A stretch of DNA of 64,000 nucleotides from Halobacteroidaceae bacterium. GTDB taxonomy: Bacteria > Bacillota > Halanaerobiia > B1SED10-174. The stretch is taken from NCBI GenBank assembly GCA_003554145.1, contig PWFS01000001.1, positions 1,439 through 65,438 of the forward strand. The letters run 5' to 3'. The notes beneath the pieces were generated by a model. That model was given only the letters and a program-made list of their open reading frames with translations. It was not told where the DNA came from and did not search any database. Position 1 is the stretch's first letter. Each line of letters opens with the position of its first letter. A program made the translations under genes and the position numbers. Positions 35,584 through 62,331 of the stretch are shown here, one piece after another.

Positions 35584-35702
35584 GTTGCGATTTAAGGACA
35601 GGGTTGATTTAATGGGAAGAAAAAACCTTTGCCCTTGGTTCAAAATTGAGGTTGCTTTTGGATTTTCCCGTAGGGCAGAAATTAAGGGGAGATGGTGCGT
35701 GG

Positions 35703-39956: not shown

Positions 39957-41621
39957 GTGCGAAGGTTAACCTGGTTTATTCTGGGCCTGGCCATTCTTTG
40001 GGGGACGGGTACCGCAGCCCGAGAGGTGGAATGGCCCGAGGGCTGGTCTGCTGCAGAAACAATAGATCAGTATAGCATTTTCTCCCAGCGTTACGATGTT
40101 GACTTTAACCAGCAGCAGGATCAGTTTGTAGTTGCGGGAATTACAGGTTCCCGGGGTGCAATGCACCTGATCCTGGATATATTTGAAGCAGGTATTACCC
40201 CCCAAAAAAAGGACCGGCTTCTGGTGCGAGAAGAATCCAGTTTTATTGATTTTCCCCTGGTCTTTATTGATTCTTCTGGTAATTTTCTGTTATTCTGGAT
40301 GGAGGAAATTAATCGCATCCGCCATATTTATTTCCAAAAAATGGATAGAGATGGAAATTTTCTCGGGGATCGGGTAATTATCCTGGAATCTCCCCGCCGG
40401 ATCAGCAATATGCGGGGTTTTTTGGACGAAAAGGATCGGGTTCACTTGAACTGGACGGGCCTGGGAGAAACCGGCCTGGAAATCCACTACAGCCGGCTTG
40501 GGCCTGGGGGCGAGATTGAGCAGGAACCAATTGCCCTGACTTCTTCCGAGAAGTTTTCGTATCGAGGGCTGATTTTGAGTGATGGAGAAAAATTGCACCT
40601 GTTCTGGGTTGAATTGTTCCAGCTTTCTGCTGACTTACAATACCAGCAGTTTAACCTGGAGGGTGATCCCCTGGGTTCAAGCCAGACCATTGCCCATGTA
40701 TCCCTGGTGGATCGGGCTGGTTTTCCTTTTCTGGAAATATCCATGGACGGGGTGCTGGATGAGAGGGGTGAAATCCATCTGATCTGGAATGCCCAGGGAG
40801 ATGGTGACGATTTATTTCGTTCTGGTTCGGATATTTTTTACTCTCGGTTTCGGGATGGGAAAATGGTGGTGGAACCACAGAACCTTATTGCTTACTGGGC
40901 TGATGCCCATTTTCCCGTAATAGCTATAGCCGGTGATAAAATAAAAATTGCCTGGGAAGATCATCTCCGGGCCCCGGTTAGAATTGCCTATCAATCCTGG
41001 GAAAAAAATCAGGAAGGTCCAATAGAGTCTGTTTATCTCAATTACGGGGTCAATTCTGGCTTTTCTCCCCGCATCCTTATTGATGGGGAAGGTTGGGCCC
41101 ATGTGTTCTGGTATAATTTTTTTCGGGATAGAAATATTATAGAAGTTAAAACAATAAATCACCGTTACCCCGGAAGTCCTTCATTTTGGTACCAGCTGGG
41201 TTTGGGGACTGAAAGCCCATTCCAGCGATTGCTTTATGTCCTGGGGTTAAATTTTCTCCTCGCTCTTCTAAACAGTCTTACCCACCTCCATTTTATAATT
41301 ATTGTGATTTTGATGCTGGCCCTGGCCGGGAATTATCTGGATTTAAAAAAGTTTACCTGGGGAGTTATTTTTACCGGTTTTGCCCTGATTTTTTTATTAC
41401 AGGAAACGGGCTGGTACTATCAGCCCCTCTACCTGGAAGGGGGATTTGAATTTCTGTCTACAGCCCTGGCCGCTCTGCTGGTATATGTTTTTTTAAGGGC
41501 TTTTTCTGACTGGCCGGGGATTAAAGATGCCATGGGGCAATTTATAGTTTTCTGGCTTTTTGTTTACTGGCAGACCTTTTTTTCCTTTATTCCCCATTAT
41601 ATTAATGAGATTATCCCTTGA
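39957..41621 (+). CDS. Paralog B of the membrane-anchored repeat protein family
   Basis: GTG start after AGGGAGGAG; VEWPEGWS motif; repeats LLFWMEE, VHLNW, LHLFWVE, IHLIWNA, IKIAWED, AHVFWYN; C-terminal TM helices; 17 nt after polA stop. Confidence 0.6.
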   Translation: MRRLTWFILGLAILWGTGTAAREVEWPEGWSAAETIDQYSIFSQRYDVDFNQQQDQFVVAGITGSRGAMHLILDIFEAGITPQKKDRLLVREESSFIDFPLVFIDSSGNFLLFWMEEINRIRHIYFQKMDRDGNFLGDRVIILESPRRISNMRGFLDEKDRVHLNWTGLGETGLEIHYSRLGPGGEIEQEPIALTSSEKFSYRGLILSDGEKLHLFWVELFQLSADLQYQQFNLEGDPLGSSQTIAHVSLVDRAGFPFLEISMDGVLDERGEIHLIWNAQGDGDDLFRSGSDIFYSRFRDGKMVVEPQNLIAYWADAHFPVIAIAGDKIKIAWEDHLRAPVRIAYQSWEKNQEGPIESVYLNYGVNSGFSPRILIDGEGWAHVFWYNFFRDRNIIEVKTINHRYPGSPSFWYQLGLGTESPFQRLLYVLGLNFLLALLNSLTHLHFIIIVILMLALAGNYLDLKKFTWGVIFTGFALIFLLQETGWYYQPLYLEGGFEFLSTALAALLVYVFLRAFSDWPGIKDAMGQFIVFWLFVYWQTFFSFIPHYINEIIP

Positions 41622-46335: not shown

Positions 46336-48051
46336 GTGAAAAAAAGTCTGGTTGTGTTTTTTGTGGGGGCATTGGTCCTGGCCATGTCCTTTTCCGTAAT
46401 CGCCGCCGTGCCCGCCGATTACGTTGAATCTCCCTATCCAGTGGGGAATGTGGGGGAAACTCTCTTAAGTTCTCAAATTTCTGACCCAAGAACTTTTAAT
46501 ACCCATATTGCCAAGGAAACCTCTTCTACAGATGTTATTAATCAGTTTTTGACCTCTTTTACCCGCCGTGATCCTCATACTGCCGAGATCATTCCTAATC
46601 TGGCTAAGGGATGGGATTTCAGTGATGATGGACTGGAGTGGACTTTTTATCTTCGTGAGGGGGCAAAATGGAGTGATGGAACGCCCATCACTGCCTATGA
46701 TGCGGAATTCACCTTTGACGTAATTTATGACGAAACTGTTCCCACCAGCTCCCGGGATGTTTTGCAGGTAGCAGGGCAGTATCTGGATTATGAAGTTATT
46801 GATGATTACACTTTCCGCCTGTATCTTCCCGAGCCTTTTGCTCCTCTGCTTGCCACCCTGCCCAATATTGTTCCCAAGCATGCCCTTTATGATGCGTGGG
46901 AAGCCGGGGACTATAATGAAACCTGGAGTATTAATACTCCACCCTCAGAAATAATCGGTTCAGCTGCCTTTATGCTGGGTGGCTATCGTCCGGGTGAGCG
47001 TGTTGTTCTGCTTCGTAATCCCAACTTCTGGCATGTAAATGAGCGGGGAGACGCCCTGCCTTATATTAGCCGCTGGATTATGCAGATTGTTGAAAGTCAG
47101 GATGCTGCCAGTCTTGCCTTTGAAGCTGGAGAAACCCATGTAAACAGTGTGCGTCCGGCTGACTATGCGCGTTATCGCATGAATGAGCGTAACTGGAATA
47201 TGCAGGTGCATAATATGGGCCCAACTTTCAGCACCCTTTTTGTTATCATGAATATGAATCCACGGGGTCCGCACTTTGAAGAAGAGCCCTACAAACTGGA
47301 ATGGTTCAAAAATCTCCATTTCCGCAGGGCAGTAGCTCATGCTGTGGATAAGTATACCATGGTTGATCAGCTCTATGATGGGCTGGCTACTCCTCAGTGG
47401 TCTCCAGTTAGTGCGCCCAATGAATTCTTCCTCAATCCCGATGTCAAGAAATATGAGTATGACCTGGATGCAGCCCGGGAAGAACTGGAAAAGGGTGGCT
47501 TTACCTGGGATGCCCAGGGCCGGCTGTTTGATGATGATGGTAATCGGGTCAGCTTTATTCTGACCACCAATGCCGGTGTTGATGTGCGCGAAGGTGCCGG
47601 TAACCTGCTACAGGCTGACCTGCAGGAGCTGGGTATGGACGTAACCTTCACCCCGGTTGATTTCAACTACCTGGTCAATCAGCTGACCAGTGAGTTTGAA
47701 TGGGATATGATGATTATGGGTCTTACCGGTGGCCTCGAACCCCATACCGGCCGCAATGTATGGCATTCTTCGGGTAACCTGCATATGTGGAATCCTTTAC
47801 AGGATGAGCCCGCTACCGAATGGGAAGCCCGGATAGATGAAATCTTTGACGAAGCTGCAACTGTTCTCGATCCGGATGAGCGCCAGGCTCTCTATTATGA
47901 GTGGCAGGAAATTATTGCCGAACAGGTTCCCATTATTTATACCGTTGTTCAGGATAGTCTCCTTGCTATGCGCAACACGGTTAAGAATGCTGATCCTACC
48001 ATTGTTGGCGGCTGGACTCACAATATAGAAAGTCTCTTTATTGAAAGATAG
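46336..48051 (+). CDS. oppA: ABC transporter substrate-binding protein, family 5 (oligopeptide/dipeptide)
   Basis: 571 aa; signal peptide without lipobox Cys; family-5 SBP size and composition; GTG start after AAGGAGG; heads permease/ATPase operon. Confidence 0.8.
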   Translation: MKKSLVVFFVGALVLAMSFSVIAAVPADYVESPYPVGNVGETLLSSQISDPRTFNTHIAKETSSTDVINQFLTSFTRRDPHTAEIIPNLAKGWDFSDDGLEWTFYLREGAKWSDGTPITAYDAEFTFDVIYDETVPTSSRDVLQVAGQYLDYEVIDDYTFRLYLPEPFAPLLATLPNIVPKHALYDAWEAGDYNETWSINTPPSEIIGSAAFMLGGYRPGERVVLLRNPNFWHVNERGDALPYISRWIMQIVESQDAASLAFEAGETHVNSVRPADYARYRMNERNWNMQVHNMGPTFSTLFVIMNMNPRGPHFEEEPYKLEWFKNLHFRRAVAHAVDKYTMVDQLYDGLATPQWSPVSAPNEFFLNPDVKKYEYDLDAAREELEKGGFTWDAQGRLFDDDGNRVSFILTTNAGVDVREGAGNLLQADLQELGMDVTFTPVDFNYLVNQLTSEFEWDMMIMGLTGGLEPHTGRNVWHSSGNLHMWNPLQDEPATEWEARIDEIFDEAATVLDPDERQALYYEWQEIIAEQVPIIYTVVQDSLLAMRNTVKNADPTIVGGWTHNIESLFIER

Positions 48052-48138
48052 TTGGAGTAATTAAAATAAGGGGGGAGAGTTTCCTCTTCCCCCTTAATTT
48101 TTTATTCTATCTGATCGCTGGGGGAGAGGAGGCCTAGT

Positions 48139-49110
48139 ATGAGGATTTATATAATCCGGCGAATTCTGCAAATGTTTCCCCTGCTTTTGGGTATCAGTAT
48201 GATGAGCTTTTTTGTACTGAACCTATCGCCGGGGGATTTCCTTGCCCAGATAGAAATGAATCCAGACATCTCGGCAACTTTAATTGCCCAGATGCGGGCA
48301 GATTTTGGCCTGGACCAACCGGTGTGGGTTCAGTATTTTTACTGGCTGCGGGAACTATTAAGATTAAATTTTGGCGAATCTTTTGCCTATCGGATTCCTG
48401 TGGAACAGTTGATTGGTTTTCGAATAATGAATACCTTCCGGCTGTCCCTGGCCGCAACGGTTTTAACCTGGGTTGTGGCAATTCCAGTGGGGATTCATGC
48501 TGCAATTAACCGCTATTCACTGCGGGATAATGTTCTTACCTTTTTCACCTTTTTTGGAATATCCGTACCCAACTTTTTCTTTGGGTTGATTCTTCTATTC
48601 CTGATTGCCAGATATGGATTGTTAGGTTTACCCGTGGGGGGTATGACTTCATGGTACCACGAAGAATTATCTTTTATGGCCAGGATGTGGGACTATATTC
48701 GTCACCTTATTCCACCGACCATAGTTCTGGCAACTGCAGGAATGGCCGGCCTGATGCGTCAAATGCGAGGGCAGATGATGGATGCAATGAGTCAGGATTA
48801 TATACGAACTGCACGATCCAAGGGCTTGAATGATCGGGTGGTTATTTATAAACATGCTCTGCGTAATGCCATCAACCCCCTGATTACTATTTTTGGTTTT
48901 AGTATCAGTGCTCTTTTGAGTGGAGCTGCAATTACCGAGGTAGTTTTCAGTTATCCAGGTCTGGGGAATATGCTCCTTACTGCAGTAAGGCAAAAAGATC
49001 TATATGTCGCCATGGCTGGACTTATGATGGGAAGTGTTCTTCTTATCCTGGGGAATCTTCTGGCAGATATTCTGCTTGCAGTTACCGATCCCCGGATAAG
49101 ATATAATTAG
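48139..49110 (+). CDS. oppB: Oligopeptide ABC transporter permease
   Basis: DYIRTARSKGL...VIYKHALRNA signature of OppB/DppB. Confidence 0.85.
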   Translation: MRIYIIRRILQMFPLLLGISMMSFFVLNLSPGDFLAQIEMNPDISATLIAQMRADFGLDQPVWVQYFYWLRELLRLNFGESFAYRIPVEQLIGFRIMNTFRLSLAATVLTWVVAIPVGIHAAINRYSLRDNVLTFFTFFGISVPNFFFGLILLFLIARYGLLGLPVGGMTSWYHEELSFMARMWDYIRHLIPPTIVLATAGMAGLMRQMRGQMMDAMSQDYIRTARSKGLNDRVVIYKHALRNAINPLITIFGFSISALLSGAAITEVVFSYPGLGNMLLTAVRQKDLYVAMAGLMMGSVLLILGNLLADILLAVTDPRIRYN

Positions 49111-49128
49111 AGGAAAGGAGGTATAATT

Positions 49129-50466
49129 GTGCAGCAACCTCCAGCCAATCAGGATTTTGAAAAGCAAAGAAAAAAAATGGAGAGCGAAGAAGATTTTATC
49201 CGCTCACCTATAAGGGTAGCCTGGATGCGATTAAAAAGGCACCGCCTGGCTCTTTTTGGGGGAATTGTTCTGGCAATTCTTTATTTCTCTGTTATTTTTG
49301 CCCCCCTGTATGCTCCCTATGACCCCTATCAGCAGTTCCGGGGGAAATCATATCACCCTCCTGTTTCCATCCGGGTTCGAGATGAGGATGGGAATTTCCG
49401 AATGCCCTTTATCTACAATTACCTCCGTGGCCACCGCTATATGATATATGGATATTTTGATCAGGAGGATCCGGATACTGGTGAGATGACTGAACTTGAG
49501 GAGGACCTGGGGACTTTTGATGTTGTTGACCGGGCGGAGGCCCATGGTAAGGCCGAAAAAATTGCGGAGGAAGAAGGAGCAGATGATTTCACCTATTTCC
49601 CAATTATGAGGATCTGGGTGGAAGACAGGCAGGAATCACCCCGCTTTCCGTTGAAACTATTTGCAGAGTCGGATAGAGATTTTTCGGTTCTCGGAATTCC
49701 TGCCAGTACAAAAATCCTGGGTCTGGGAGAACCCAGCTTTGCAGACCCCTATTCTGAGCGGGAAACCGCACGTATTTTTCTGTACGGTACTGATCAGTTT
49801 GGCCGGGATAATTTCAGTAGACTTCTGCACGGAGGTCGGGTCTCCCTGTTTATTGGTATCGTAGCCCTGATGATCAGTACTTTTATTGGAATGATTTTTG
49901 GAGGCATTTCCGGGTATTATGGAGGCTGGATTGATAACATGATGATGCGCCTGGCAGAAGTGGTTATGAGTTTCCCGCAATTTTATCTACTCATGGCCCT
50001 GGCCGCGGTTTTACCCCTGGACATGACTTCTGCTGCCCGGTTCTTTTTAATCGTTGTGATCCTGGCTTTTGTAGGCTGGGCCGGCCTGGCCCGGGTTATC
50101 CGGGGTATGGTTCTATCCATCAGTCAGCAGGACTTTGTCGAGGCTGCACGAGCTCTGGGCGGTAGTGACCTGCGAATTATTATTCGTCATGTTCTTCCCA
50201 ACACCTACACTTATGTAATTGTAGCTGCAACCCTGGCCCTTCCCGGCTATATTCTGACCGAGGCTGGATTGAGCTTTTTGGGCCTGGGGATACAGCAACC
50301 ACAGGCCAGCTGGGGGAACATGTTATCAGCGGCCCAGAGCATTAGAGTTTTGACCGAAAATGCCTGGCTACTGGTTCCCGGTTTCTTTATTTTTATTGCT
50401 GTTCTGGCGTTCAGTTTCTTGGGTGACGGCATCCGAGATGCTTTTGATCCCAAGACTGATGTATAA
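49129..50466 (+). CDS. oppC: Oligopeptide ABC transporter permease with extended N-terminal periplasmic region
   Basis: C-terminal OppC/DppC permease core (EAARALGGSDLRII); about 150 extra N-terminal residues after first TM. Confidence 0.85.
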   Translation: MQQPPANQDFEKQRKKMESEEDFIRSPIRVAWMRLKRHRLALFGGIVLAILYFSVIFAPLYAPYDPYQQFRGKSYHPPVSIRVRDEDGNFRMPFIYNYLRGHRYMIYGYFDQEDPDTGEMTELEEDLGTFDVVDRAEAHGKAEKIAEEEGADDFTYFPIMRIWVEDRQESPRFPLKLFAESDRDFSVLGIPASTKILGLGEPSFADPYSERETARIFLYGTDQFGRDNFSRLLHGGRVSLFIGIVALMISTFIGMIFGGISGYYGGWIDNMMMRLAEVVMSFPQFYLLMALAAVLPLDMTSAARFFLIVVILAFVGWAGLARVIRGMVLSISQQDFVEAARALGGSDLRIIIRHVLPNTYTYVIVAATLALPGYILTEAGLSFLGLGIQQPQASWGNMLSAAQSIRVLTENAWLLVPGFFIFIAVLAFSFLGDGIRDAFDPKTDV

Positions 50467-50488
50467 AAGAAAGGAGGCTTAACAAAAA

Positions 50489-51514
50489 GTGGCAAAAGAT
50501 GTGCAGAACGAGAAGAAATCCAAAGAACTACTCTTAGAGGTCAAAAACCTAAAAACCTACTTTCACACCGAGGACGGCGTGGTTAAAGCTGTTGATGGTG
50601 TATCCTTTGAAATTTACAAAGGAGAGGTATTAGGTATTGTTGGAGAATCTGGTTGTGGCAAAAGTGTAACCTCGCTGTCTATTATGCGCCTGGTCCAGGA
50701 ACCCCCTGGGAAAATCTCTGCCGACACACTTACTTTTGAAGGAGCGGAAATCCTGAAAAAGAGTGAATCTGCTATGAGGAGGATCAGGGGGAATGATATC
50801 TCCATGATCTTCCAGGAGCCGATGACCTCGCTGAACCCGGTGTATACTGTTGGAAATCAGATTTCCGAAGCCATTATTCTCCACCAGAAATTGTCCAAGG
50901 ACAAGGCTATGAAAAATGCGGTCGAAATGCTGCGCAAGGTTGGTATTCCGCTTCCCGAGAAAAGGGTGCATGAATACCCCCACCAGCTTTCCGGTGGTAT
51001 GCGCCAGCGGGTAATGATCGCCATGGCACTGTCCTGTAACCCTAAACTCTTGATTGCCGACGAACCAACCACCGCACTGGATGTTACCATCCAGGCCCAG
51101 ATCCTGGAGTTAATGGGTTCTTTGCAGCGGGATTTCGATGCAGCCATTATGTTGATCACTCATGACCTGGGAGTAGTTGCTGAGACCGCCGACCGAGTAG
51201 TGGTTATGTATGCGGGTAAGGTAGTGGAATATAGTGATGTGAATACGATTTTCCACAATCCTCGCCACCCCTATACCTGGGGTCTTCTGCAGTCCATCCC
51301 GCGTCTTGATGAAGAGCGGGAGCGACTCCTGGTAATTGAAGGTGTGGTTCCCAATCCGCTATTCCTGCCGGATGGTTGCAAATTCCACCCTCGCTGTCGT
51401 TTTGCTTCTGAGAGATGTTCAGAAGAAGAACCCGAACTGGAAAATATCAATCAAGATCATCAAGTTCGCTGCTGGCATTATGATAAAGTTGCCGAAGCGG
51501 ATAAAAAGGTTTAA
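50489..51514 (+). CDS. oppD: Oligopeptide ABC transporter ATP-binding protein
   Basis: GESGCGKS Walker [10 protein letters not shown]-terminal oligopeptide-ABC Cys-containing extension. Confidence 0.9.
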
Positions 51515-51530
51515 TTGGAGGTGAATTCTG

Positions 51531-52529
51531 GTGGCTAACGAAGAAATCCTACTAGAAGTCAATAATCTCAAGAAATACTTTCCCATAAAGGGTGGAGTTT
51601 TCGGCCGGGTTGTTGGCAATGTTAAAGCTGTAGACGGAGTTTCCTTTTATGTAAATAAAGGGGAGACTGTGGGACTTGTTGGTGAATCCGGTTGTGGCAA
51701 GACCACGACCGGGAAAGTTGTTCTCCGCCTGGAAGAAGCAACAGAAGGCGAAATTCTTTTTGAGGGTCGCAATGTCCTGGAACTGGGGCGGGAAGAAATG
51801 CGCAGCCTGCGCCGGGAAATGCAGATAATTTTCCAGGACCCCTATAGTTCACTGAACCCCCGGATGACCGTTGGCAATATTATCGGGGAAGCCCTGGAAA
51901 TTCACGGTCTGGCCCGGGGTAAGGCCAAGGAAAAGAAAGTTAAAGAACTTCTGGAAGTTGTTGGGCTTACCGCCCATCACATGCGCCGCTATCCTCACGA
52001 GTTTAGCGGTGGGCAGCGTCAGCGGATCGGTGTAGCCCGAGCCCTGGCCGTGGATCCCAAATTGATTGTATGTGATGAACCTGTTTCAGCCCTTGACGTT
52101 TCTATTCAGGCCCAGGTTATTAACCTGATGGAGGATTTGCAGAAGGAATTTGACCTGACCTATCTATTTATTGCCCACGACTTGAGTGTGGTCAAGCATA
52201 TCAGTGACCGGATTGCAGTTATGTATCTGGGGAAAATTGTTGAACTGGCTGATAAAGCGGCACTGTTTAAAAAACCCATTCATCCCTATACCCAGGCTCT
52301 TCTCTCCGCCATTCCCATTCCTGATCCAGCAATTAAGAGGGAGAAGATAATTCTGAAGGGTGATGTTCCCAGCCCAGTTAATCCTCCCTCGGGTTGCCGT
52401 TTTCACACCCGTTGCCCCTACGTTATGGATATTTGCAAAACAGAGGAACCCGAATTTGTGGACTGGGGAGATCGGCACTTTGCTGCCTGTCACCTGGAAG
52501 AAGGTGCTCCCGAAAGAGAAGTTCTTTAA
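51531..52529 (+). CDS. oppF: Oligopeptide ABC transporter ATP-binding protein
   Basis: [18 protein letters not shown]-terminal CRFHTRCP motif. Confidence 0.9.
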
Positions 52530-52552
52530 ACCAAACTCAAATCAGGATAGAA

Positions 52553-52581
52553 AAGGAGAGGCCAGCCCTCTCCTTTTTCTT
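52553..52581 (+). terminator. Rho-independent terminator of opp operon (GGAGAGG-ccagc-CCTCTCC + TTTTTCTT)
   Basis: 7-bp GC stem plus T-run 24 nt after oppF stop. Confidence 0.6.
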
Positions 52582-52891
52582 ATGGGTGTGCCCGACATAT
52601 CTATTGAGGATCTCGCCTTTTATGGCAGATTAGGATGATGAAAAGGGCAAGATTGCCCAGGGGCTGGAGGCGCTGTAGGGAGCAGTCTGACGAACTGTAG
52701 AGTAGAAGAGGAGCACTGGGAAGGGAGCCCAGTGTGGGAATTTTGGCCTAATGGATGAAACTTATTCGGGAGCAGCTTATGCGGCTCGTAGGCAAGTTAT
52801 AGGAGAGGGGAAGTCCTCGTTTAGCTCGGGGCTTCTCCACTCAATTTTTTTCGGGTGCTGGCAGGAAATGGCTCCAGAAAAATTATATTAC

Positions 52892-52920
52892 TTGACCCTG
52901 ACTCCCTGCACTGGTATTAT
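52892..52920 (+). promoter_or_regulatory. Candidate sigma70 promoter TTGACC-17-TATTAT upstream of small acidic membrane protein
   Basis: TTGACC 52892-52897, 17-nt spacer, TATTAT 52915-52920. Confidence 0.4.
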
Positions 52921-53026
52921 TTAAGTGAATAGGGATTGTTGTAATATTAATCTGTTGATAATCAGGGAAATGGTCCCGCCCGGATAGTTTGCTCGGAATA
53001 TAGCTTCTCGGAGAGGGGGGCGGATA

Positions 53027-53212
53027 ATGTACGAACCAGATAGAGACCGGGAAAAAGAGGAAAGAGAAGGAAGGGAAGAAGAAGAGGTTAAACCAACCTG
53101 GAAGGATTTTCTGGCTATGACCATTGCTGCTTATGAAATTATCCTGGTCCCGATGCTAATAATTTTCGCCGTTCTGGGAGGTGTAATATTCCTTTTTTAC
53201 CTTATATTTTAA
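53027..53212 (+). CDS. Small tail-anchored membrane protein with poly-acidic/charged N-terminus (61 aa)
   Basis: GAGAGGGGGG RBS 6 nt before ATG; EPDRDREKEEREGREEEEVK then single C-terminal TM helix; followed by hairpin terminator. Confidence 0.45.
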   Translation: MYEPDRDREKEEREGREEEEVKPTWKDFLAMTIAAYEIILVPMLIIFAVLGGVIFLFYLIF

Positions 53213-53227
53213 TAAGAATAGCAAAAA

Positions 53228-53258
53228 CCCCCGCCTTGCCGGGGGTTTTCACATATGC
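53228..53258 (+). terminator. Terminator ACCCCCG-ccttgc-CGGGGGT + TTTC
   Basis: GC-rich hairpin directly after 53027..53212 stop. Confidence 0.45.
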
Positions 53259-54062
53259 TGCTGATGGTCGGTTTAATGTGATTGATTTATGGGAAATTAA
53301 TAGTAATATTGACTCATTAAAATGAGAGTTTTTGCAATTTTGAAATTATATTGGTTTTCCATAACGCATATTTAGATCATAAACCCTGCAAATCCGGAAA
53401 AAAGCTCAGTTATTATTTCCAGGCTATTAACCTCAAATTTAATCAGTAGTTTTAGCTCTGACAATTAATTTCTTTTTTCAATTTCCCGGAATTTGCAATG
53501 GATTACGTTAATAATTTAGAGGAAAAGATTAAGACGATAATAAATTCATTATTTTGTTGTAGAGAGTTTAGTAGAAGAAGGAAATAGTTGAATAATTAAT
53601 AAACTGCTGGGTTTGAAGTCCCATGCAGAACTCTCTTTTTGCTTTAACAGGTCTTGATTACAACCCTCGGGCGAGTATTAAAAATTAGCAGAAAAAATTT
53701 AAAAATTCGCAAAAATTTTAAGAATTTTGGCTTATAATATAGTAGAGGGGGTGATTATTTTCAATTACGGTAAAATGAAATAACTTTTTCAAGTTTAAGG
53801 GAAATTGTTCTTGCAATATTTAAACTTAAATGGTTTTTTGCGGTTTTTAGGGCAATTCGGAGGGTAGCTAAACATTGAGAAGAATAGTTTAATCAGCAGC
53901 TAATTATTTTGGTCAGACCTGTAGTTTATTGGCGTTTAAAACCGACGAGGAATTAAAATGGGGCTTAAAGTTTGAAGGGCTCATAGGTTACAAGGGGCAG
54001 CGCTCTTGCCGTTATTAGGTTCTGGAAAGGAGTTCAAAATTTAAAAAGATGGGAGATAGGGC

Positions 54063-54599
54063 ATGTCAGAAAATATTATCCTGTTACTTGTTGCGGTTGT
54101 AGTTGGAGGTGGTTTAATTGCTGGTATCTTATATTTTATTCTCCGTCACATGCGGGGCTCAATTAAATTATCCCTACCCCAGACAGCATTTAACCCGGGA
54201 AATAAGATTAGCGGTGAGTTTGATCTTCTCGCAAAAAAACCCATCCAGGGAAATAAACTTATCGTTAGGTTGATTGGGCAACAGGTCACCAGGCACCACC
54301 AGAATGGGAAGAGCAGGACGCGCTCCCAGGAGATTTACAGGGATGAAGTTCTTGTTGAAGAGGCTAAGGACTATCCTGCCGGATATACTGGTAAGTATAG
54401 CTTTGAAATTAACACCCCGAATACAAATGAAACAGAATTTCTAAATTCTCCTCTTGGTCAAACTCTAAATGCTGCTGTTCGATTGCTCAGTAACCGAAAC
54501 ACACGCCTCCAATGGAGGGTAGAAGCCAGGCTGGATGCCAAAGGTATTGATCTGGTAGCAGCAAAAAAAATTACCCTAAATACCAAATTTATGGGGTAA
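54063..54599 (+). CDS. Hypothetical N-terminally membrane-anchored protein
   Basis: 178-aa ORF after GGGAGATAGGG RBS; N-terminal TM IILLLVAVVVGGGLIAGILYFIL; sits at edge of AT-rich island. Confidence 0.45.
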   Translation: MSENIILLLVAVVVGGGLIAGILYFILRHMRGSIKLSLPQTAFNPGNKISGEFDLLAKKPIQGNKLIVRLIGQQVTRHHQNGKSRTRSQEIYRDEVLVEEAKDYPAGYTGKYSFEINTPNTNETEFLNSPLGQTLNAAVRLLSNRNTRLQWRVEARLDAKGIDLVAAKKITLNTKFMG

Positions 54600-55023
54600 T
54601 TTTATGAGTTCCACCGTATTGGAGGTTTGTTGAACACACGCCAGATAAGGCAAAACCTGATAAAGTCAAAGGTCTCAGTTGGAATTGGACAATTAGCGTA
54701 ATCATGCAGTTGCAGACAATAACCCGGGAGCTGTTTAACTTCTTATTATTTTATCAATTCTATAGATATATAAGGGAATATGGGGCATAAGTTTCCGACT
54801 ACTACCAATTAAGCCCTTATACAGGCTTATTACCCCAATGGTGGACAATGAAAATTAACCAAACCACCTTGCTTTGAGCTCCTATGTTTGTGGGGAGCTT
54901 TTTTCATTTTTGAAAGGAGCCTGCAGAAAACTTCCAGTAACAGTTTGAGTTAAGGATCAATGTCGAAAAAATGAAACCGCAACCACTCATCATTAGGAGA
55001 GTTTGCGGCAAAAAAATCAAGAA

Positions 55024-55110
55024 TGGTGCCGAGAGCGGGATTCGAACCCGCACAGGCTCACGCCCACAGCGCCCTCAACGCTGCGTGTCTGCCAATTCCA
55101 CCATCTCGGC
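55024..55110 (-). tRNA. tRNA-Leu (anticodon GAG), class II with long variable arm
   Basis: Reverse complement GCCGAGATGGTGGAATTGGCAGACACGCAGCGTTGAGGGCGCTGTGGGCGTGAGCCTGTGCGGGTTCGAATCCCGCTCTCGGCACCA: 7-bp acceptor stem, anticodon stem CAGCG/CGCTG with loop TTGAGGG (anticodon GAG), T-loop GGTTCGAATCC, encoded CCA. Confidence 0.85.
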
Positions 55111-55427
55111 TCTTTTAATATTATAACACATCCAAAAAACCTGTCAATAATTCAACAGATGAATTGCCGGCACTATTCCAGGCAGAAAACATTTTGGAAG
55201 GGGAAAGTCAGTACAGAGAATCTCCGAAATTTTTGTTAGTTTTTTCTTTTCTGCTTCAGGAAAAATAAAAATCTAATAGAGGTTGGAACGGGGAGGGATC
55301 AGGGAAAAGGAGGGCCATATAATAAAAAACAGGAATAGGAAGCATTACTGAGTAAAAAGGAAAAAAAGACCGTTAAATCGGGGTTTTTTTGCAGGGGAAA
55401 AGGTATGTTTGCCGAATTTAAACGTTA

Positions 55428-56915
55428 ATGTTTTTTGCAGGGGGGATAATTTTGGAAAAATGGCGTGATGTACTGGCCCTGCTTGTAATTCTGGGCCTGG
55501 TGGCAGCCTCCCTGGGGGCCATATTTTTCCTGCAAAGGGGAATTGATGTGCAGGTTTTTACTCCGGAAAATCGTATTGTGGCCCGAAATATAGGGGCCAC
55601 TGGTGAAGTGCATTTTTCGGGGGGGGAGAGAGTGTATTCTCCTTTTGCGGGTATAATTGCCGAAGTCCAGGTAAAAAAAGGAGAACTGGTGGAAAAGGGC
55701 GATCCCCTTTTTATTTATGATACCGAGGAATGGGAAAGAGAATTAATGCAGTTGAAACTGCGCTTCCAGCAGCTAAAAGAGGAAGAATCTTTTAGGGAAA
55801 ATCAAATTCGAAGAGAACTTGCTGACCTGGAAGCCAGAAAAATGGACTGGCTTTTGCGGGAAGAAGAACTTCATTATTCTCAGGATATAAGAAAATGGGA
55901 AATGGAATGTTTGATCCAGGATCTGGAAAGGGAATTAGATCAGGCGAGAAAAGATCTGGCTGATCTGGAGGATTTTTATCATTCAGAATATGTTACCTGG
56001 CGAGAAGTTCAAAAAGCACGGGATCAAGTTGCAAACCTGGACCATGAACTGAAAAGGGCCAGGTTGGACCAGAAACAGGTCCTGGAGGTTGAATTCCCCC
56101 TGCAGGAAAAGATTTTAAACAGAGAAGGTTTGCGGATCAGTAACAAAATAGAAGAAACCCGCAAAAAACTGGAAGTTTTCCTGGAAAAAAAAGGCCTGAA
56201 TTCTGCCTACCAGGAAATGGAACTAATTCAGGGCAGCATTGAACAACTGGAACTGAGGCTGGCGAATAAGGAAGTGATGGCTCCAGAAGAGGGGCTGGTT
56301 AACAGCCTGATGCTGGAACAGGGCCAGAGGGTTAATCAAGGATTGCTGGCCCTAGAAATTAATGATCCTGCTGCAATTGAGATTGTTCTGAAGGTCAACT
56401 CCCGGGATTTTCACCGACTGGAAAAGGGGCAGGAGGTGGAGGTTTTCCTGGAGGACATTCATCCTCCCCTGAGTGGAAAAATTGAATGGATAGCACCCTG
56501 GGCTGAAGAACAATTGGTAGAAACCGGGGTTGTTTTGACGGACCGGCGAGATCTTCTCCGGCCGGGAATGGTCGTAGAAGCACAGATTAATCTGACCGGA
56601 CGGCGCCTTCTGATACTTCCCCCCCAGGCAGTTTTTGAGCGTGAACTTCAAGATACCAGGATGATAATCAGGGAGGGAGAGGATACTGCCTATTATGTAT
56701 TTCTGGTGGACAAGGATTCCCGGGAGGTTTATCCCAGTCGGGTGCGTATCGGACAGGAAACTCAGGATTATATTGAAATTGTTTCCGGCCTCAGTGCTTC
56801 CAGCAATGTAGTTATCGGGGATACCGAGGCTCTTAACAGGTTGGAAGGCTACCTGACCGAGTGGGAACAGAGGTTGATTGAAGAAATCAGGGAAAATTTT
56901 ACTGATAATAATTAG
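55428..56915 (+). CDS. HlyD-family membrane-fusion / periplasmic adaptor protein (start may be TTG 55452)
   Basis: N-terminal TM, long coiled-coil heptad region (ELMQLKLRFQQLKEEE..., DLADLEDF...), C-terminal beta-barrel/lipoyl-like segments. Confidence 0.7.
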   Translation: MFFAGGIILEKWRDVLALLVILGLVAASLGAIFFLQRGIDVQVFTPENRIVARNIGATGEVHFSGGERVYSPFAGIIAEVQVKKGELVEKGDPLFIYDTEEWERELMQLKLRFQQLKEEESFRENQIRRELADLEARKMDWLLREEELHYSQDIRKWEMECLIQDLERELDQARKDLADLEDFYHSEYVTWREVQKARDQVANLDHELKRARLDQKQVLEVEFPLQEKILNREGLRISNKIEETRKKLEVFLEKKGLNSAYQEMELIQGSIEQLELRLANKEVMAPEEGLVNSLMLEQGQRVNQGLLALEINDPAAIEIVLKVNSRDFHRLEKGQEVEVFLEDIHPPLSGKIEWIAPWAEEQLVETGVVLTDRRDLLRPGMVVEAQINLTGRRLLILPPQAVFERELQDTRMIIREGEDTAYYVFLVDKDSREVYPSRVRIGQETQDYIEIVSGLSASSNVVIGDTEALNRLEGYLTEWEQRLIEEIRENFTDNN

Positions 56916-56926
56916 GAGCTGTTTTT

Positions 56927-58993
56927 ATGGTTCGCTTTTTCTCGCGCAGGATTCTAACCGTATTATTGCTGATCTGGCTTCTAACTGCAATAATTTTTGC
57001 CCTGATTGCTGCTTCTCCCGAAGGGTTGGAGAGAGTTCTTCCTGTTAGTGGATCCGGCCCCTTTGAGCTGGCCCGAGAAAGGAGTATCAATAACCTGGAT
57101 TCTTCTCCAGCCAGGGAGTATTTTGTCTGGATTGGGGAAATGTTATCCGGGAATCTGGGAACTGTTGGAGGTACTGGCTCAACCGGGTTCCCCCTGATCA
57201 CCATTCTGGGACAGCGCCTGGCTGTTAGTTTTATACTGATTGGAACCTCACTCATTGTCGCGGTGTCAGCCGGGCTGATAATGGGGGTTTACTCTGCCCT
57301 CCGTCCCCACAGTATCCTGAGCAGATTATTGAATTACCTGGGTATACTGGGAGTTTCTATTCCTGATTTTGCCCTGGGAATTCTGTTATTGATAGTATTT
57401 GCTGTTCATCTGCAGTGGCTTCCTTCCGGTGGTCAGCAGGGCCTCCTATTTGATGAAACAGGCCTGAGTATGATCCTTGACCGTTTGCGCCATTTAATTC
57501 TACCGGTGATAACCCTTGCCGCTGGTTATATTGCCATTTTTTCTGAGCATGTAAAAACAGCCTTATCCCTCACCGTCCGGGAAGACTATATTCGTACCGC
57601 TCGTTCCAAGGGACTTTCCGAAAAAGTGGTTATTCTCAAGCATGCCCTGCGCAACAGCATGATTCCCATTCTGGCTTCCCTTTTTTCTTCCCTACCCTTT
57701 TTTCTGGGGGGAATAGTGGTGGTAGAACACCTCTTTTCCTGGCCCGGTTTGGGCTCTTTCATTTATCGTAATGTCCTGGACCGAACCGGGGATTTTTACG
57801 TGGTATTAATTATAACCGGGCTGATATCCTTTATTACCCTGATGGGGAGTCTCCTGGCTGACTTTTTGTATGCCCTGGTGGATCCCCGGGTGCGCAATCC
57901 GGTGGAAAAAACGGATAAAGGAATTCCCCTACTAAATATTTTTATTGTTGCAGGAACTGGCCTGTTCGCAGTTTTCTTTTACTTCTGGATTCTGGAACCC
58001 GCTTACAGCTTCCTGGGGTCAGGAATGGTTATTGGGATGGCCTTTGCTGGCTTTCTGACCCTTATTGGCATCTGGGTATTGCCCCGCCGAAAAGAAAAAA
58101 AACAACCCAACTCTCCAGGAGGATCCTTGACGACCTGGTCTCAGGCGTTACCTGTTTTTAACTGGAGATTAATTATTGGTTTTTTCCGGGGCCTGGCTCG
58201 TCCGGGAGTAATTCTGGGAATTATTATCCTGATCAGTATAATGGGAGGTTATTTCTATACTCAGAGCGAGGGTTTAATGCGGGTGAGTGATATGCCTGTA
58301 GACCTGGAAAATCGTCTTGCGCCCCCTTCCCTGGAAAATATTTTAGGAACTGATCGAATTGGGAGGCCAGTTTTAACTGCGGTTTTAATTAATGCTGGTA
58401 ATACTATGAGCCTGGTTTTTTATATAACACTTATTGGTCTTCTGGGAGGAACTGTTCTGGGGGTCCTTTCCGGTTATCTGCAGGGTCTTTTTGACCGCTC
58501 CCTGATGGCCATATTTGATCTGCTGTCCTCAATCCCCAGTTTTTTCTTTGTGTTTTTGATTATGGGGGCCATTGGTCAGGAGGAGAACATAATAATAATG
58601 GCTGCTGCGGTGGTAGGTTTGATAGAGCTAACCCGGGTTATCCGGGCCCGGATGCTTTCCATTAAAGAATTCCAGTTTGTGGAGGCTGCCCGCTCCCTGG
58701 GTAATTCTGACCTGCAGATTCTGGCCCGCCATCTTCTTCGCAATGTTTTTCCCCTGATCTGGGGACAGGGTTTGATTCTTTTTGGCCGTAATATGGTTTT
58801 ATTATCTTCTCTGGGGTATTTGCGGATAATACCTTCTACTACCTGGGGTTCAATGGCCGGTGATGCCGTGCGGTCTTCCCTTTATGATTGGTGGGTCAGC
58901 CTGGGGCCCATCATTATGATTATCCTGGTAGTTTTTGCCGTAAATATTATCGGGAAGGGGGTGCTGGGAAACATTGATCCCCTTAAGAAATAA
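56927..58993 (+). CDS. Fused OppB-like + OppC-like ABC permease (single 688-aa polypeptide); no ATPase or SBP in operon
   Basis: First half contains DYIRTARSKGLSEKVVILKHALRN (OppB/DppB signature); second half contains EAARSLGNSDLQIL (OppC/DppC signature). Confidence 0.75.
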   Translation: MVRFFSRRILTVLLLIWLLTAIIFALIAASPEGLERVLPVSGSGPFELARERSINNLDSSPAREYFVWIGEMLSGNLGTVGGTGSTGFPLITILGQRLAVSFILIGTSLIVAVSAGLIMGVYSALRPHSILSRLLNYLGILGVSIPDFALGILLLIVFAVHLQWLPSGGQQGLLFDETGLSMILDRLRHLILPVITLAAGYIAIFSEHVKTALSLTVREDYIRTARSKGLSEKVVILKHALRNSMIPILASLFSSLPFFLGGIVVVEHLFSWPGLGSFIYRNVLDRTGDFYVVLIITGLISFITLMGSLLADFLYALVDPRVRNPVEKTDKGIPLLNIFIVAGTGLFAVFFYFWILEPAYSFLGSGMVIGMAFAGFLTLIGIWVLPRRKEKKQPNSPGGSLTTWSQALPVFNWRLIIGFFRGLARPGVILGIIILISIMGGYFYTQSEGLMRVSDMPVDLENRLAPPSLENILGTDRIGRPVLTAVLINAGNTMSLVFYITLIGLLGGTVLGVLSGYLQGLFDRSLMAIFDLLSSIPSFFFVFLIMGAIGQEENIIIMAAAVVGLIELTRVIRARMLSIKEFQFVEAARSLGNSDLQILARHLLRNVFPLIWGQGLILFGRNMVLLSSLGYLRIIPSTTWGSMAGDAVRSSLYDWWVSLGPIIMIILVVFAVNIIGKGVLGNIDPLKK

Positions 58994-60665
58994 TCGGGCC
59001 CTGCGCCTGGGACTACTATTTTTGATCCTCCTCGGGGTGGGAACGCATTTTTTGCTGCTTCCGGATCAGGCCGGGGAAGAAAAATCCATATTGCATTCTC
59101 CCCGGCACTTAATTACCCATATTCAGGCGGGTAATTACCCTCCTGCTTTTTTGTTAGAGGAAGAAGGGATTATCCATTTTCTGGGCCGGGAACAGGGGCA
59201 TATATTGCAGTACATCAGGCTGGAAGATTATTTCACTCCTTCCCTCCAGGAAAAAATCAAATTTTCCAGGGATATTACTCTTGAATATGTTCTCCCTCTG
59301 GGACAGGAAGAGGGAGGGGATCTCCTGTTTGCCGTTGTTGGCCGGGAAAGATGGGAGCATAGTATTTTTCTTCTGTCCAGAGAAGAAGGGGAATGGGTTC
59401 AAAAAAAGTTACCCCTCCACCCTGTTCAGAGTAAGGATGTAGACGGGTTGTTAATTAAAGACGAAGTAGTTCTGGTGTATGTGGAACGTGAAGAAGATCA
59501 ATATCACTTAAAAATGAAGAAAGGTAATAATTCTCCCATATCCCTTTTTTCTTCTCCAGGCCATATCGGCTTACCTCGCCTGGAGATCGATGAAAAAAAC
59601 AGGCTGCATGTTATGTGGAAAGGCACCCGGGGAGCCGTTGGTATAATGCAGTATCAGGTGTTCTGTCCGGAAGAGGGTGAACCCCAGAGCGAGAATCCCC
59701 GGGAACTGGGGGAAGCTTCAATTTATTTTGGAGAGATCTCCGGTCAGCCCCGCTTGTTTCGAGAGGATCCGGGAGGCAGCCTGATGGTTGATGCAGGGGG
59801 AAATGTTTTTCTGGCCTGGACCGATGCTTTCTGGGAACCTCTTCTGGGGGTTCATCGAAGCAAGGTCCACCTGACCCGCCTATCTTCAGATGGTCAGGAG
59901 CAGGGAGAATGGATTTTTTCTGGATTGGAAAACTTTTCCCTGGCCCCCAGGCTTTTGACTATTCCCGAGAAAGGGACTGCTCTTTTTTTGGAAGACCTGG
60001 CGGGGAATCAGTTTAATCTTCAATTTTTGGAACTTTGCCCGGAGGTGGATGACTTTATTTCTCCCAGCCGTTTTACCCCCTTTTATGGCAATCATCGGCT
60101 GGCTGCTGTTGACAGTGATGAAGAAGGGGAAAAAATGGTTATGTGGCGGACCATGGATGGGAGAAAGGACGCAGTATGGGCCCGGAGCAGTCGGCAGTCA
60201 TCTTTACCCACCTGGTACGATAGCTGGGGACTCTGGTTTGCCCGGGAGGGGACCCAAGATCTTTTCATTGAAGGGAGCCTCCTGATGTTATACAGTCTGG
60301 CGGGAGGGGTTGCTTTTCTGGGTCGAAACGCTCTAATTATTGCCCTGATTGCCCTACTGCTCTATGGTTTGCAGACTTACCGGTTCCTGGGGAAAATTAA
60401 TTTCTTTATTTTCTCCGGCTTATTATTGGCCCTTTTATTCTTTTTCCAGGAATTTTTCCCCCTGTTTTATTCACCTCCTTACGCTCAACCGGGGTTGCTG
60501 CTGTTTTCTGCCCTGATTACAACAACGGTAATGATTGGAGTTGCCCGTAAACACTGGTTTGATGGAGGAGAAGAAATAATATACCTGAGCTATACTGTTT
60601 TCTGGATTTTCTTTAATTCCTTTTTGATCTTACTGGCTACGGCGCCAGCAACTTTCCACCCCTGA
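58974..60665 (+). CDS. Paralog C of the membrane-anchored repeat protein family (TTG start overlapping permease stop)
   Basis: N-terminal TM LGLLFLILLGVG; repeats IHFLG, LLFAVVG, VLVYVERE, LHVMWKG, VFLAWTD, MVMWRT; C-terminal 4-TM region. Confidence 0.55.
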   Translation: MIPLRNNRALRLGLLFLILLGVGTHFLLLPDQAGEEKSILHSPRHLITHIQAGNYPPAFLLEEEGIIHFLGREQGHILQYIRLEDYFTPSLQEKIKFSRDITLEYVLPLGQEEGGDLLFAVVGRERWEHSIFLLSREEGEWVQKKLPLHPVQSKDVDGLLIKDEVVLVYVEREEDQYHLKMKKGNNSPISLFSSPGHIGLPRLEIDEKNRLHVMWKGTRGAVGIMQYQVFCPEEGEPQSENPRELGEASIYFGEISGQPRLFREDPGGSLMVDAGGNVFLAWTDAFWEPLLGVHRSKVHLTRLSSDGQEQGEWIFSGLENFSLAPRLLTIPEKGTALFLEDLAGNQFNLQFLELCPEVDDFISPSRFTPFYGNHRLAAVDSDEEGEKMVMWRTMDGRKDAVWARSSRQSSLPTWYDSWGLWFAREGTQDLFIEGSLLMLYSLAGGVAFLGRNALIIALIALLLYGLQTYRFLGKINFFIFSGLLLALLFFFQEFFPLFYSPPYAQPGLLLFSALITTTVMIGVARKHWFDGGEEIIYLSYTVFWIFFNSFLILLATAPATFHP

Positions 60666-61068
60666 ATAAGGGTAGAATTGGACCGTCAGAAACTAAAACT
60701 ATTGGATTAGTTGTCAGGGAGATCTCCAGAGGAAAGCGGGGCAATTATGGAGGCAGATAAAGAGTGAGCGGGTTTTTTATCCTGAGCCTGCTCCTGGCTC
60801 CAGCTGTTTTCATGCCCTGATAAAAAAGCCTCCGGGACAGTTAGAGGTCAAACCAAGAACCAGACAATTTCCAAAAAACCCTGTTCTTCGATTCAGCAGT
60901 CTCGGAAATTATTTCAGGCCTGGATTCAGAGCAGAGGTTTTTTTTTATTTTCCTGTCCGGTTAGTTGTGAAGGTAGGGAATAAGGAAGAAGGAAGTCAGG
61001 AATAAAACTTTTTTTATCAACAGGCTTTTAAGGCTTGTTTTTTTTATATTTTTTTAGTATCATTTGTT

Positions 61069-62331
61069 ATGAGGGTGTGCACCGTTTGTGCACATACTCT
61101 ACCTGGAGGTGAGAGAGTGCATCCATTTTTAGAACATGTTAACCCGGCACTGGGATCATTATTGAAAGCTTTAAATATGGATAAAACATTTGTTAAAGGG
61201 GAGGGTAGCTGGCTCTATGATGAAAAGGGAGACTGTTATCTGGATATGGTGTCCTCATATGGTGCCCTTCCTTTCGGTTATAATCCTCCTGCTATCTGGG
61301 AGGCTCTAAAACAGGTTGAAAAAACAGCAGAACCGAGCCTGGTTCAACCTTCATTCTTAGGAGCTGCGGGGGAACTGGCCCGTCGTCTGGTAGAGCTGGC
61401 GCCTCCCGGGATGGACAAGGTCACATTTACCAATAGTGGGACCGAGGCGGTGGAGGCAGGAATCAAAATGGCCCGAGCTCGCACAGGGCGTCAGGGAATT
61501 ATTTCTACCTACGGGGGCTTTCACGGCAAAACCCTGGGGTCTCTCTCTGCTACAGGTAGGGCCTCCTATCAAAAGCCATTTTTTGCTCCTGTAGAGGGTT
61601 TTGGATTTATTCCCTTTGGGGACCTGGAGGCTCTGCAGCGTGTTCTTGCTGAAAAAGGTGAGCAAATTGCTGCGGTGGTCCTGGAACCCATTCAGGGTGA
61701 GGGAGGCATAGTTGAACCTCCTCCTGGATATTTGCGGCAGGCCCAGGAGTTATGTACCGAGAATGGGTCCTTATTAATTGTCGATGAAATTCAAACTGGC
61801 CTGGGGCGAACAGGGTATCTTTTCCTTGCTGCTGAAGAGGGCTTCACTCCCGATATTATTACCCTGGCCAAAGCCCTGGGGGGCGGTCTTTTCCCTATTG
61901 GAGCCGTTCTGGCCAGAGGAGATGTTTTCACCGATGATTTTGGTAACAAGCACTCCTCCACTTTTGCGGGCAATACCCTGGGGGCCAGGGTAGGAATTGC
62001 AGTTCTGGATCTTCTGACTGAGCGGGAAGGAGCATTGCTGCAGGAAGTCAGGGAGAAAGGGAAGCGTTTTAAAAAGGGCCTGGAAGAAATTAAAGAGGCT
62101 CATTCCAGAGTAATCAGAGAAATTCGAGGCCGGGGTTTTCTCCTGGGGATTGATTTTGATGTTTCCCGTTTCAATCTCCCCGAAACCCTCCTGGGAATCA
62201 TGGGCGATCAGGAAATGCTGACTCCGGTTCTTTCCAGCCATCTTCTCTGTCAGGAGCAAATCCGGGTGGCTCCAACCCTTAACGGAGATACAGTGATCCG
62301 AATTGAACCACCTCTGAATGTTAAAGATTAG
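61069..62331 (+). CDS. Class-III PLP-dependent aminotransferase (acetylornithine/omega-aminotransferase family)
   Basis: FVKGEGSWLYDEKG, TFTNSGTEAVEAGIKMAR, LLIVDEIQTGLGRTG, TLAKALGGG (PLP Lys) motifs. Confidence 0.8.
   Translation: MRVCTVCAHTLPGGERVHPFLEHVNPALGSLLKALNMDKTFVKGEGSWLYDEKGDCYLDMVSSYGALPFGYNPPAIWEALKQVEKTAEPSLVQPSFLGAAGELARRLVELAPPGMDKVTFTNSGTEAVEAGIKMARARTGRQGIISTYGGFHGKTLGSLSATGRASYQKPFFAPVEGFGFIPFGDLEALQRVLAEKGEQIAAVVLEPIQGEGGIVEPPPGYLRQAQELCTENGSLLIVDEIQTGLGRTGYLFLAAEEGFTPDIITLAKALGGGLFPIGAVLARGDVFTDDFGNKHSSTFAGNTLGARVGIAVLDLLTEREGALLQEVREKGKRFKKGLEEIKEAHSRVIREIRGRGFLLGIDFDVSRFNLPETLLGIMGDQEMLTPVLSSHLLCQEQIRVAPTLNGDTVIRIEPPLNVKD

Follow-up and report, generated by a model that had tools for sequence, protein, structure and literature searches.

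We analysed a 64,000-nucleotide (nt) stretch of contig PWFS01000001.1 (assembly GCA_003554145.1, Halobacteroidaceae bacterium), referred to here as the window, with a focus on a three-gene module on its + strand. The module encodes a membrane-fusion protein, an ATP-binding cassette (ABC) permease in which OppB- and OppC-like halves are joined in one chain, and a membrane protein with a predicted β-propeller. The component families are known; their combination was found described nowhere, and a literature search on adaptors with Opp-type or importer-type permeases, or on fused OppBC proteins, returned nothing relevant. The function of the module (transport, partners and substrate) is something we infer from sequence. 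Homologous loci in other assemblies are designated by L numbers. Open reading frames (ORFs) were read at 55428-56915 (495 amino acids, aa), 56927-58993 (688 aa) and 58974-60665 (563 aa), corresponding to the following features:

55452-56915, + strand: adaptor (membrane-fusion protein, periplasmic adaptor), 487 aa from TTG 55452 or 495 aa from ATG 55428
56927-58993, + strand: single-chain ABC permease, 688 aa, approximately 14 membrane helices (Pfam, NCBIfam and solved-structure matches, hydropathy)
58974-60665, + strand: C-type propeller membrane protein, 563 aa

The adaptor stop codon and the permease gene are separated by 11 nt, with an AGGAG ribosome-binding site ahead of the permease ATG, and the 3' end of the permease gene overlaps the start of the propeller gene by 20 nt (58974 versus 58993). 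This tight spacing had been noted in the original prediction, an earlier reading of the same DNA, and its coordinates are confirmed. The adaptor start required correction: it had been placed at ATG 55428, whereas ortholog alignment gives TTG 55452 as the true start, in agreement with the gene calls on four of five near-identical contigs.

As judged from its domains, the first gene product is a bona fide efflux-type membrane-fusion protein, as originally proposed. It matches Pfam families HlyD_3 (6.7e-18), HlyD_D23 (8.4e-15) and Biotin_lipoyl_2, and exceeds the cut-off of NCBIfam model TIGR01730 (RND_mfp, 1.1e-31). Its domains are an N-terminal membrane helix, a lipoyl domain, a very long α-hairpin, a β-barrel, a membrane-proximal domain and an extra C-terminal helix. 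In the AlphaFold2 (AF2) model, the membrane helix covers residues 15-29, the hairpin helices cover residues 100-185 and 191-279 with a predicted local distance difference test (pLDDT) score > 90, and the extra C-terminal helix covers residues 466-491; at 1.5 Å per residue, the hairpin length is estimated at approximately 125 Å. The best Foldseek match to this model is EmrA (4tko, 7.8e-19), followed by MacA. EmrA-type long hairpins go with pumps whose inner-membrane partner has little periplasmic mass, and such a hairpin would be compatible with an Opp-type permease as partner. The canonical hairpin-tip pattern R-x3-L-x6-S, described for AcrA and MacA, is intact in the orthologs of L010 and L013, and close relatives of the window adaptor keep the L and S of this pattern, not the R. 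A homolog search with the adaptor (E up to 1e-5) returned eight proteins, among which the module orthologs are close (50-99% identity) and the next proteins reach 24-31%. This adaptor clade was seen with this module only. In the seven lineages that carry the adaptor, the sole adjoining transporter gene is the fused OppBC permease gene; no RND, MFS, MacB-type or type IV ABC gene adjoins it there.

The second gene product is a one-chain combination of OppB and OppC with a type I importer fold, organized as follows:

Residues 1-323 (56927-57895): OppB-like half
Residues 324-416 (57896-58174): poorly conserved linker with two extra membrane helices
Residues 417-688 (58175-58993): OppC-like half
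Residues 216-250 and 581-612: EAA coupling loops

Pfam BPD_transp_1 is found in two stretches (3.2e-49), and the NCBIfam models that match are of the OppB type over residues 1-323 and of the OppC type over residues 428-686. All NCBIfam equivalog scores fall short of their cut-offs, so the permease is not an ortholog of any named system. When the family profile was compared with solved structures, residues 1-323 matched OppB (8j5q_B, 2e-56) and residues 417-686 matched OppC (8z21_B, 3e-41), which together with the NCBIfam models confirms the single-chain OppB-OppC protein of the original prediction. Hydropathy places helices at residues 338-356 and 367-385 of the 93-residue linker, giving a 6+2+6 topology that is kept consistently. 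The permease has the N-terminal loop motif of OppB, the GTD..GR motif of OppC and two EAA loops. Across ten family members (43-100% identity), 46% of the positions in the N-terminal EAA loop and 31% of those in the C-terminal EAA loop are invariant, compared with 2% in the linker and 20% in the whole protein. The invariant EAA residues are D220-L230, K238, H239, R242 and N243 in the first loop and E586-A588, G592, N593, Q597, I598, H602 and N606 in the second; the best-conserved 30-residue windows of the permease are 603-632, 247-276 and 214-243. Full-length fused OppBC relatives are rare, with only 10 clusters found among 5.8 billion (43-100% identity), and two more fused genes (L020 and L022) surfaced solely via their propeller neighbours.

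The third gene product, the C-type propeller protein, is predicted to comprise an N-terminal membrane helix (residues 8-27), an outward-facing seven-bladed β-propeller (approximately residues 58-405) and five C-terminal membrane helices (residues 427-560). The model was classified as a multi-bladed propeller in a fold test, and the xHLxW motif that recurs in the protein is the signature of the propeller blades. No match was found in Pfam or NCBIfam. In particular, the protein has no direct Pfam BNR match, Asp-boxes (S-x-D-x-G-x-T-W) not having been explicitly searched; the only links are remote profile matches to BNR_4 and BNR_2 proteins, so that the repeats are distantly BNR-like. A word-indexed homolog search returned four relatives only. 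An exhaustive HMMER profile search gave 325 matches among 1.84 billion representatives, of which approximately 35 were taken as full-length (536-602 aa), judged by their lengths and matched stretches; the remaining matches that were sampled have BNR_4 or BNR_2 repeats, or PKD domains only.

The window encodes two further members of this architecture:

35646-37343, + strand: paralog A, 565 aa, WPEGWS N-terminus, between the transketolase gene and polA
39957-41621, + strand: paralog B, 554 aa, directly 3' of polA

Paralogs A and B are clearly related to each other (E 6e-37), and neither has an adjoining permease gene. They bracket polA in a region from the transketolase gene to fpg, and the same order is found on metagenome contig L019 (10001-11647 and 14281-15954). 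The C-type protein had been called the third paralog of this pair. The label holds in that the architecture is the same and the homology appears to run over the full length, including the helical bundle (profile-profile alignment with hhalign: 99.4% probability, E 1.7e-21, 441 columns); the relationship is nevertheless remote, with approximately 15% identity and a pairwise BLASTP E-value of only 0.015. A distant member of the propeller family (550 aa) is encoded in the complete genome CP016379.1 (L032, 1980-16746), which carries two tandem oppABCDF operons. This member lies directly 3' of an oppABCDF operon, and it and two small unknown genes occupy the space between the two operons. Together with the module of the window, this adjacency ties the propeller family to Opp-type genes more than once.

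A comparison of gene neighbourhoods, proposed in the original prediction, was made across approximately nine lineages. In all loci with enough upstream sequence, the C-type propeller gene lies directly 3' of the fused OppBC gene, while the identity of the propeller protein is 27-47% and the flanks differ. The adaptor is present in seven of these lineages and absent in two, and its identity among the seven falls to approximately 25-33%. The order adaptor, permease, propeller is found in the window, L001, L018 and L010, the last with different flanks (an M50 peptidase gene upstream and AFOR genes downstream). L013 contains the adaptor, the permease and the start of the propeller gene, and L020, of which the upstream end is cut off, contains the permease and propeller genes. 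In L017 (UBA4882), adaptor and permease genes precede the propeller gene. In L006/L011 and L008, one adaptor gene is followed by two consecutive permease-propeller units. The module ORFs are intact and clearly constrained in at least eight other lineages. These patterns indicate that the arrangement is not a chance neighbourhood, that the module is a genuine conserved operon-like unit, and that the permease-propeller pair is its obligate, translationally coupled core, duplicated as a unit in relatives. The second unit lies at 13784-17510 in L006 and at 5470-9202 in L008, followed by a choloylglycine-hydrolase-like (CBAH/AAT) gene; only fragments of a second propeller gene are left in L018 (8530-9269) and L025 (8428-9167), and the window has none. 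The presence and remnants of second units imply that the module expands and decays by whole permease-propeller units.

The family of modules is tiny and so far represented only in uncultured soda-lake and related Firmicutes. The permease sequence is present on metagenome contigs from Kulunda soda-lake sediment and in metagenome-assembled genome (MAG) GCA_003550965.1, the contig of which is 99.9% identical to the window. A scan of GTDB gave five loci, all in MAGs, so no cultured host is available, and a metagenome scan with the propeller alignment (A3) gave only soda-lake contigs from lineages already in the set. The host family Halobacteroidaceae is placed within the Halanaerobiales, which possess an outer membrane with lipopolysaccharide (PMC5007114). 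The host is thus a diderm Firmicute.

The module contains no gene for an ATPase or a binding protein in any of the approximately nine lineages, which extends to its relatives what had been noted for the window. None was found either between the module and the window end or in the approximately 5 kb that follow in the near-identical contig L001, although it had been anticipated that a routine importer might have such genes just outside the window. Searches by tblastn with OppA, OppD and OppF of the window gave no match in L010, L013, L017, L020 and L022 (approximately 4.5 to 22 kb per locus). The nearest binding-protein gene is oppA of a separate upstream operon, which also encodes the candidate ATPases:

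46336-52529, + strand: canonical oppABCDF operon (ORF calls)
50489-51514, + strand: oppD, candidate ATPase acting in trans
51531-52529, + strand: oppF, candidate ATPase acting in trans

This operon ends 2.9 kb from the module, not 4 kb upstream as first stated. As no ATPase is encoded in the module, it must be supplied in trans. Since few parts of the permease are conserved as well as its two EAA loops, docking of an ATPase dimer can be argued for; the likeliest situation is that the permease still docks an ABC ATPase dimer encoded elsewhere, most simply of the OppD/OppF type. Sugar importer operons without an ATPase gene can be served by a shared 'multitask' ATPase (PMC7658222). The near-invariant EAA loops and the position of the module just 3' of oppF in five soda-lake lineages (window, L006/L011, L012, L018 and L029) are consistent with the proposal that the module borrows OppD/F of the window itself. 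The OppD and OppF counterparts of L006 carry the domains ABC_tran and oligo_HPY. Between the window and other MAGs (L006, L018 and L025-L029), protein identity is 94-97% for OppD/F and 84-88% for OppA/B/C, versus 68% for the fused permease, 49% for the adaptor and 46% for the propeller protein. The unusually tight constraint on OppD/F would be compatible with their serving more than a single permease, although it may be ordinary. OppB and OppC of the window have coupling loops nearly identical to those of the fused permease. This likeness was considered as evidence of OppD/F sharing and rejected, the motif being conserved family-wide and therefore non-discriminating. Adjacency, loop likeness and OppD/F identity are each a weak pointer to the resident OppD/F.

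Upstream and downstream of the module, the following features were identified:

53028-53213: small ORF after oppF, 61 aa, acidic N-terminus and one membrane helix
53221-53252: terminator-like G+C-rich hairpin after the 61-aa ORF
55385-55451, + strand: leader or promoter-proximal stretch, conserved, 5' of the adaptor gene (DNA alignment)
61019-61047, + strand: terminator-like hairpin with T-run, 3' of the propeller gene (consensus scan only)

Between oppF and the module lie a small membrane-protein ORF, a hairpin, a 178-aa gene and, on the opposite strand, a tRNA-Leu gene with a perfect consensus promoter match. Because the hairpin at 53221-53252 and the opposite-strand tRNA-Leu gene intervene, the module is considered transcriptionally separate from opp, as a predicted transcription unit of its own. 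The three-gene transcript may plausibly end at the hairpin at 61019-61047. Scans for promoters and terminators were near background level and give weak hints only. In the leader, the core TTTGCCGAAT, with TTTTTGCAGGGGAAAA before it, is kept in four lineages while the neighbouring intergenic DNA has diverged, and TTTTTTGCAGGGG is present twice in the leader region of the window, 44 nt apart. An Rfam scan of 52400-61200 detected the tRNA only, leaving the leader at 55385-55451 without an Rfam family. A 7-codon mini-ORF at 55405-55428 was considered as a leader peptide and rejected, its ATG not being kept in L006 and L018.

An SLT lytic transglycosylase gene is located before oppA. In L006, L011 and L012, a 55-aa gene takes the place of the 61-aa ORF after oppF. 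Between the opp terminator and the 178-aa gene, approximately 0.8 kb of A+T-rich DNA (53230-54060) lacks an ORF of at least 80 aa, within a 2-kb block of 41% G+C. For the 178-aa protein (54063-54599), a membrane helix is located at the N-terminus and arrestin-like matches are weak (Arrestin_C 1e-4, short of the cut-off); its gene is kept upstream of the module in near-identical contigs. Downstream of the module, an 873-aa gene (61069/61117-63738, + strand) encodes a PigE-like fusion of a class III aminotransferase and an acyl-ACP-reductase-like protein (NCBIfam 1e-112 and 9e-49), which is kept at this position in soda-lake MAGs. At 62329 the window reads TAG, in contrast to GAG in four other assemblies from this population, and the gene is thereby split into same-frame ORFs of 420 and 457 aa. 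The TAG represents a nonsense polymorphism or else an error of assembly or sequencing.

In the textbook division, adaptors belong with exporters (RND, MFS, MacB-type and type IV ABC), and a type I fold with EAA loops denotes an importer. An operon that joins both would show either that adaptors have non-efflux roles or that the scaffold of an importer was turned to outward or envelope-spanning tasks. The explanation that we put forward, tentatively and short of calling it probable, is that the three proteins form one inner-membrane complex around the Opp-type fused permease, with ATPases provided in trans, the propeller in place of a binding protein, the adaptor as a sleeve, and transport directed outward. 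The fused permease would dock a dimer of ABC ATPases from elsewhere, for instance OppD/OppF encoded 2.9 kb upstream, an arrangement resembling that of the 'multitask' ATPases of sugar importers. Anchored by six helices, the outward-facing propeller would fill the periplasmic place of the soluble binding protein, where its task may be to present the substrate or to receive it. The adaptor could form a sleeve over the assembly and reach towards the outer membrane of the diderm host, and its long EmrA-like hairpin suggests an outward, envelope-spanning role. The result would be export or envelope delivery of some substrate, possibly peptide- or amine-like. An outward direction seems most likely because adaptors of the HlyD/EmrA/MacA class are, to our knowledge, known with exporters only and because a binding protein is lacking in the module. 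The weakest steps of this explanation concern direction and substrate. If correct, the module would be a possible example of peptide-type transporters that share ATPases, with a membrane-anchored propeller instead of a binding protein. A bolder version, which we regard as improbable, is that an Opp-derived single-chain permease exports with OppD/F recruited in trans, a propeller replacing the binding protein and an EmrA-like adaptor bridging to the outer membrane, as the first adaptor-coupled ABC machine with a type I importer fold.

Several observations weigh against the proposed complex. L012 and L022 keep the permease-propeller pair without an adaptor; hence, the core function does not require one. 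The tip of the window adaptor has D, F and T at the positions of the canonical R, L and S, and no gene for a TolC-family outer-membrane factor was found in the window or in any locus examined, such genes often being unlinked. Confidence in the propeller model is no more than moderate (pLDDT 68, six sequences), and the structures that it matches are of a generic kind. Both adaptor and permease genes carry frameshifts in L017, possibly as a result of decay or of an error in the MAG assembly. With regard to the ATPases, L010, L017 and L022 lack the opp adjacency, the module forms a transcription unit distinct from opp, and the adjacency could be mere inherited gene order, restricted to closely related MAGs that share synteny. 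EAA loops are conserved in all Opp-type permeases, so their likeness does not identify the partner ATPase, and ATPases are usually the most conserved subunits of a transporter.

One alternative is an ordinary importer of the peptide/nickel type with fused permeases, which would rely on OppA and OppD/F of the upstream operon, or on a second such set encoded elsewhere, to import a peptide-like nutrient or cell-wall fragment. The propeller would then be a tethered substrate receptor or accessory factor and the adaptor a lineage-specific structural or protective add-on. The canonical permease halves, with their OppB and OppC motifs (N-terminal loop and GTD..GR, respectively) and both EAA loops, are as expected for such an importer, and so are the loci without an adaptor (L012 and L022), the position of the module behind oppABCDF in several MAGs with an SLT lytic transglycosylase gene before oppA, and the distant propeller-family member behind a complete opp operon in L032; the distantly BNR-like repeats would represent a ligand-binding fold. 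Type I importers need a binding protein, however, and the module lacks a gene for one in all of the approximately nine lineages. Also against this reading is an adaptor gene that lies 11 nt from the permease gene, is kept in seven lineages down to approximately 25-33% identity, belongs to a clade that occurs with this module only, and represents a class that we know from exporters only. Overall, we consider an ordinary importer rather unlikely.

Transport may also be absent altogether. As in FtsEX or LolCDE, ATP-driven motion of the permease could be passed on to the propeller and adaptor to perform work in the periplasm or outer membrane, for example hydrolase control, extraction of envelope lipids or lipoproteins, or glycan remodelling. 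We know of no ABC system with a type I importer fold that acts as such a mechanotransducer, no enzyme or lipoprotein partner is consistently linked in the loci examined, and the narrow spread over a handful of MAG lineages speaks against a core role in envelope biogenesis. This leaves the idea quite unlikely, even though an outward-facing propeller coupled translationally 1:1 to the permease and resembling lectins, polysaccharide lyases and BNR repeats, the long adaptor hairpin and the diderm host all agree with it, as do paralogs A and B, which lack a neighbouring permease gene and indicate that the family can act in other contexts. Finally, the module could be decaying, or its permease could do without an ATPase and serve as a scaffold or as a channel, either passive or ion-coupled. 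The lack of a linked ATPase gene in any context, the frameshifts in L017 and the remnants of a second propeller gene in L018 and L025 point in this direction. Coupling loops with 46% and 31% invariant positions versus 20% overall are hard to explain without an ATPase partner, though, and the intact, clearly constrained ORFs in at least eight other lineages argue against decay, making this option very unlikely.

Compared with known systems, the module shares features with several transporter classes. The permease halves match OppB and OppC of the OppBCDF/DppBCDF importers (solved as 8j5q, 8z1v and 8z21) end to end, including the EAA loops. Unlike in these importers, the halves are fused via two extra helices, genes for an ATPase and an SBP_bac_5 protein are lacking, and the permease is coupled to an adaptor and a propeller membrane protein. 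With EmrAB-TolC, MacAB-TolC and HlyBD-TolC, the module has in common a membrane-anchored adaptor with lipoyl, long hairpin, β-barrel and membrane-proximal domains, EmrA being the best match, as well as an RLS-type tip in two orthologs and a diderm host. It differs from them in its inner-membrane partner, which has a type I importer fold and is not of the MFS, MacB-type, type IV ABC or RND class, in the deviating hairpin tip of the window and in that no outer-membrane factor gene is linked to it. The systems served by the shared ATPases MsmX and MsmK (PMC7658222) likewise have an importer-type permease operon without an ATPase gene; energizing in trans is known there and would apply to the module by inference. 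Those are sugar (CUT1) systems with their own binding protein, whereas the ATPases in the case of the module would be heterodimeric and of the Opp type, their sharing being presumed.

That an Opp-type system might export is not a new proposal, as NCBIfam names SapB/SapC, an Opp-type permease pair, as a putrescine exporter. SapBCDF thus resembles the module as an Opp-family pair credited with export, and the fused permease weakly matches SapB (3e-25) and SapC (4e-20); Sap differs in having its own ATPases and binding protein, and neither an adaptor nor a propeller partner. Lastly, the propeller protein shares only 6-11% identity with BNR and seven-bladed propeller lectins and lyases (5c9o, 7ron and 7esk), from which it also differs in a unique feature: one membrane helix precedes the propeller and five follow it. 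Proteins with this layout make up a small, uncharacterised family that recurs beside Opp-type genes.

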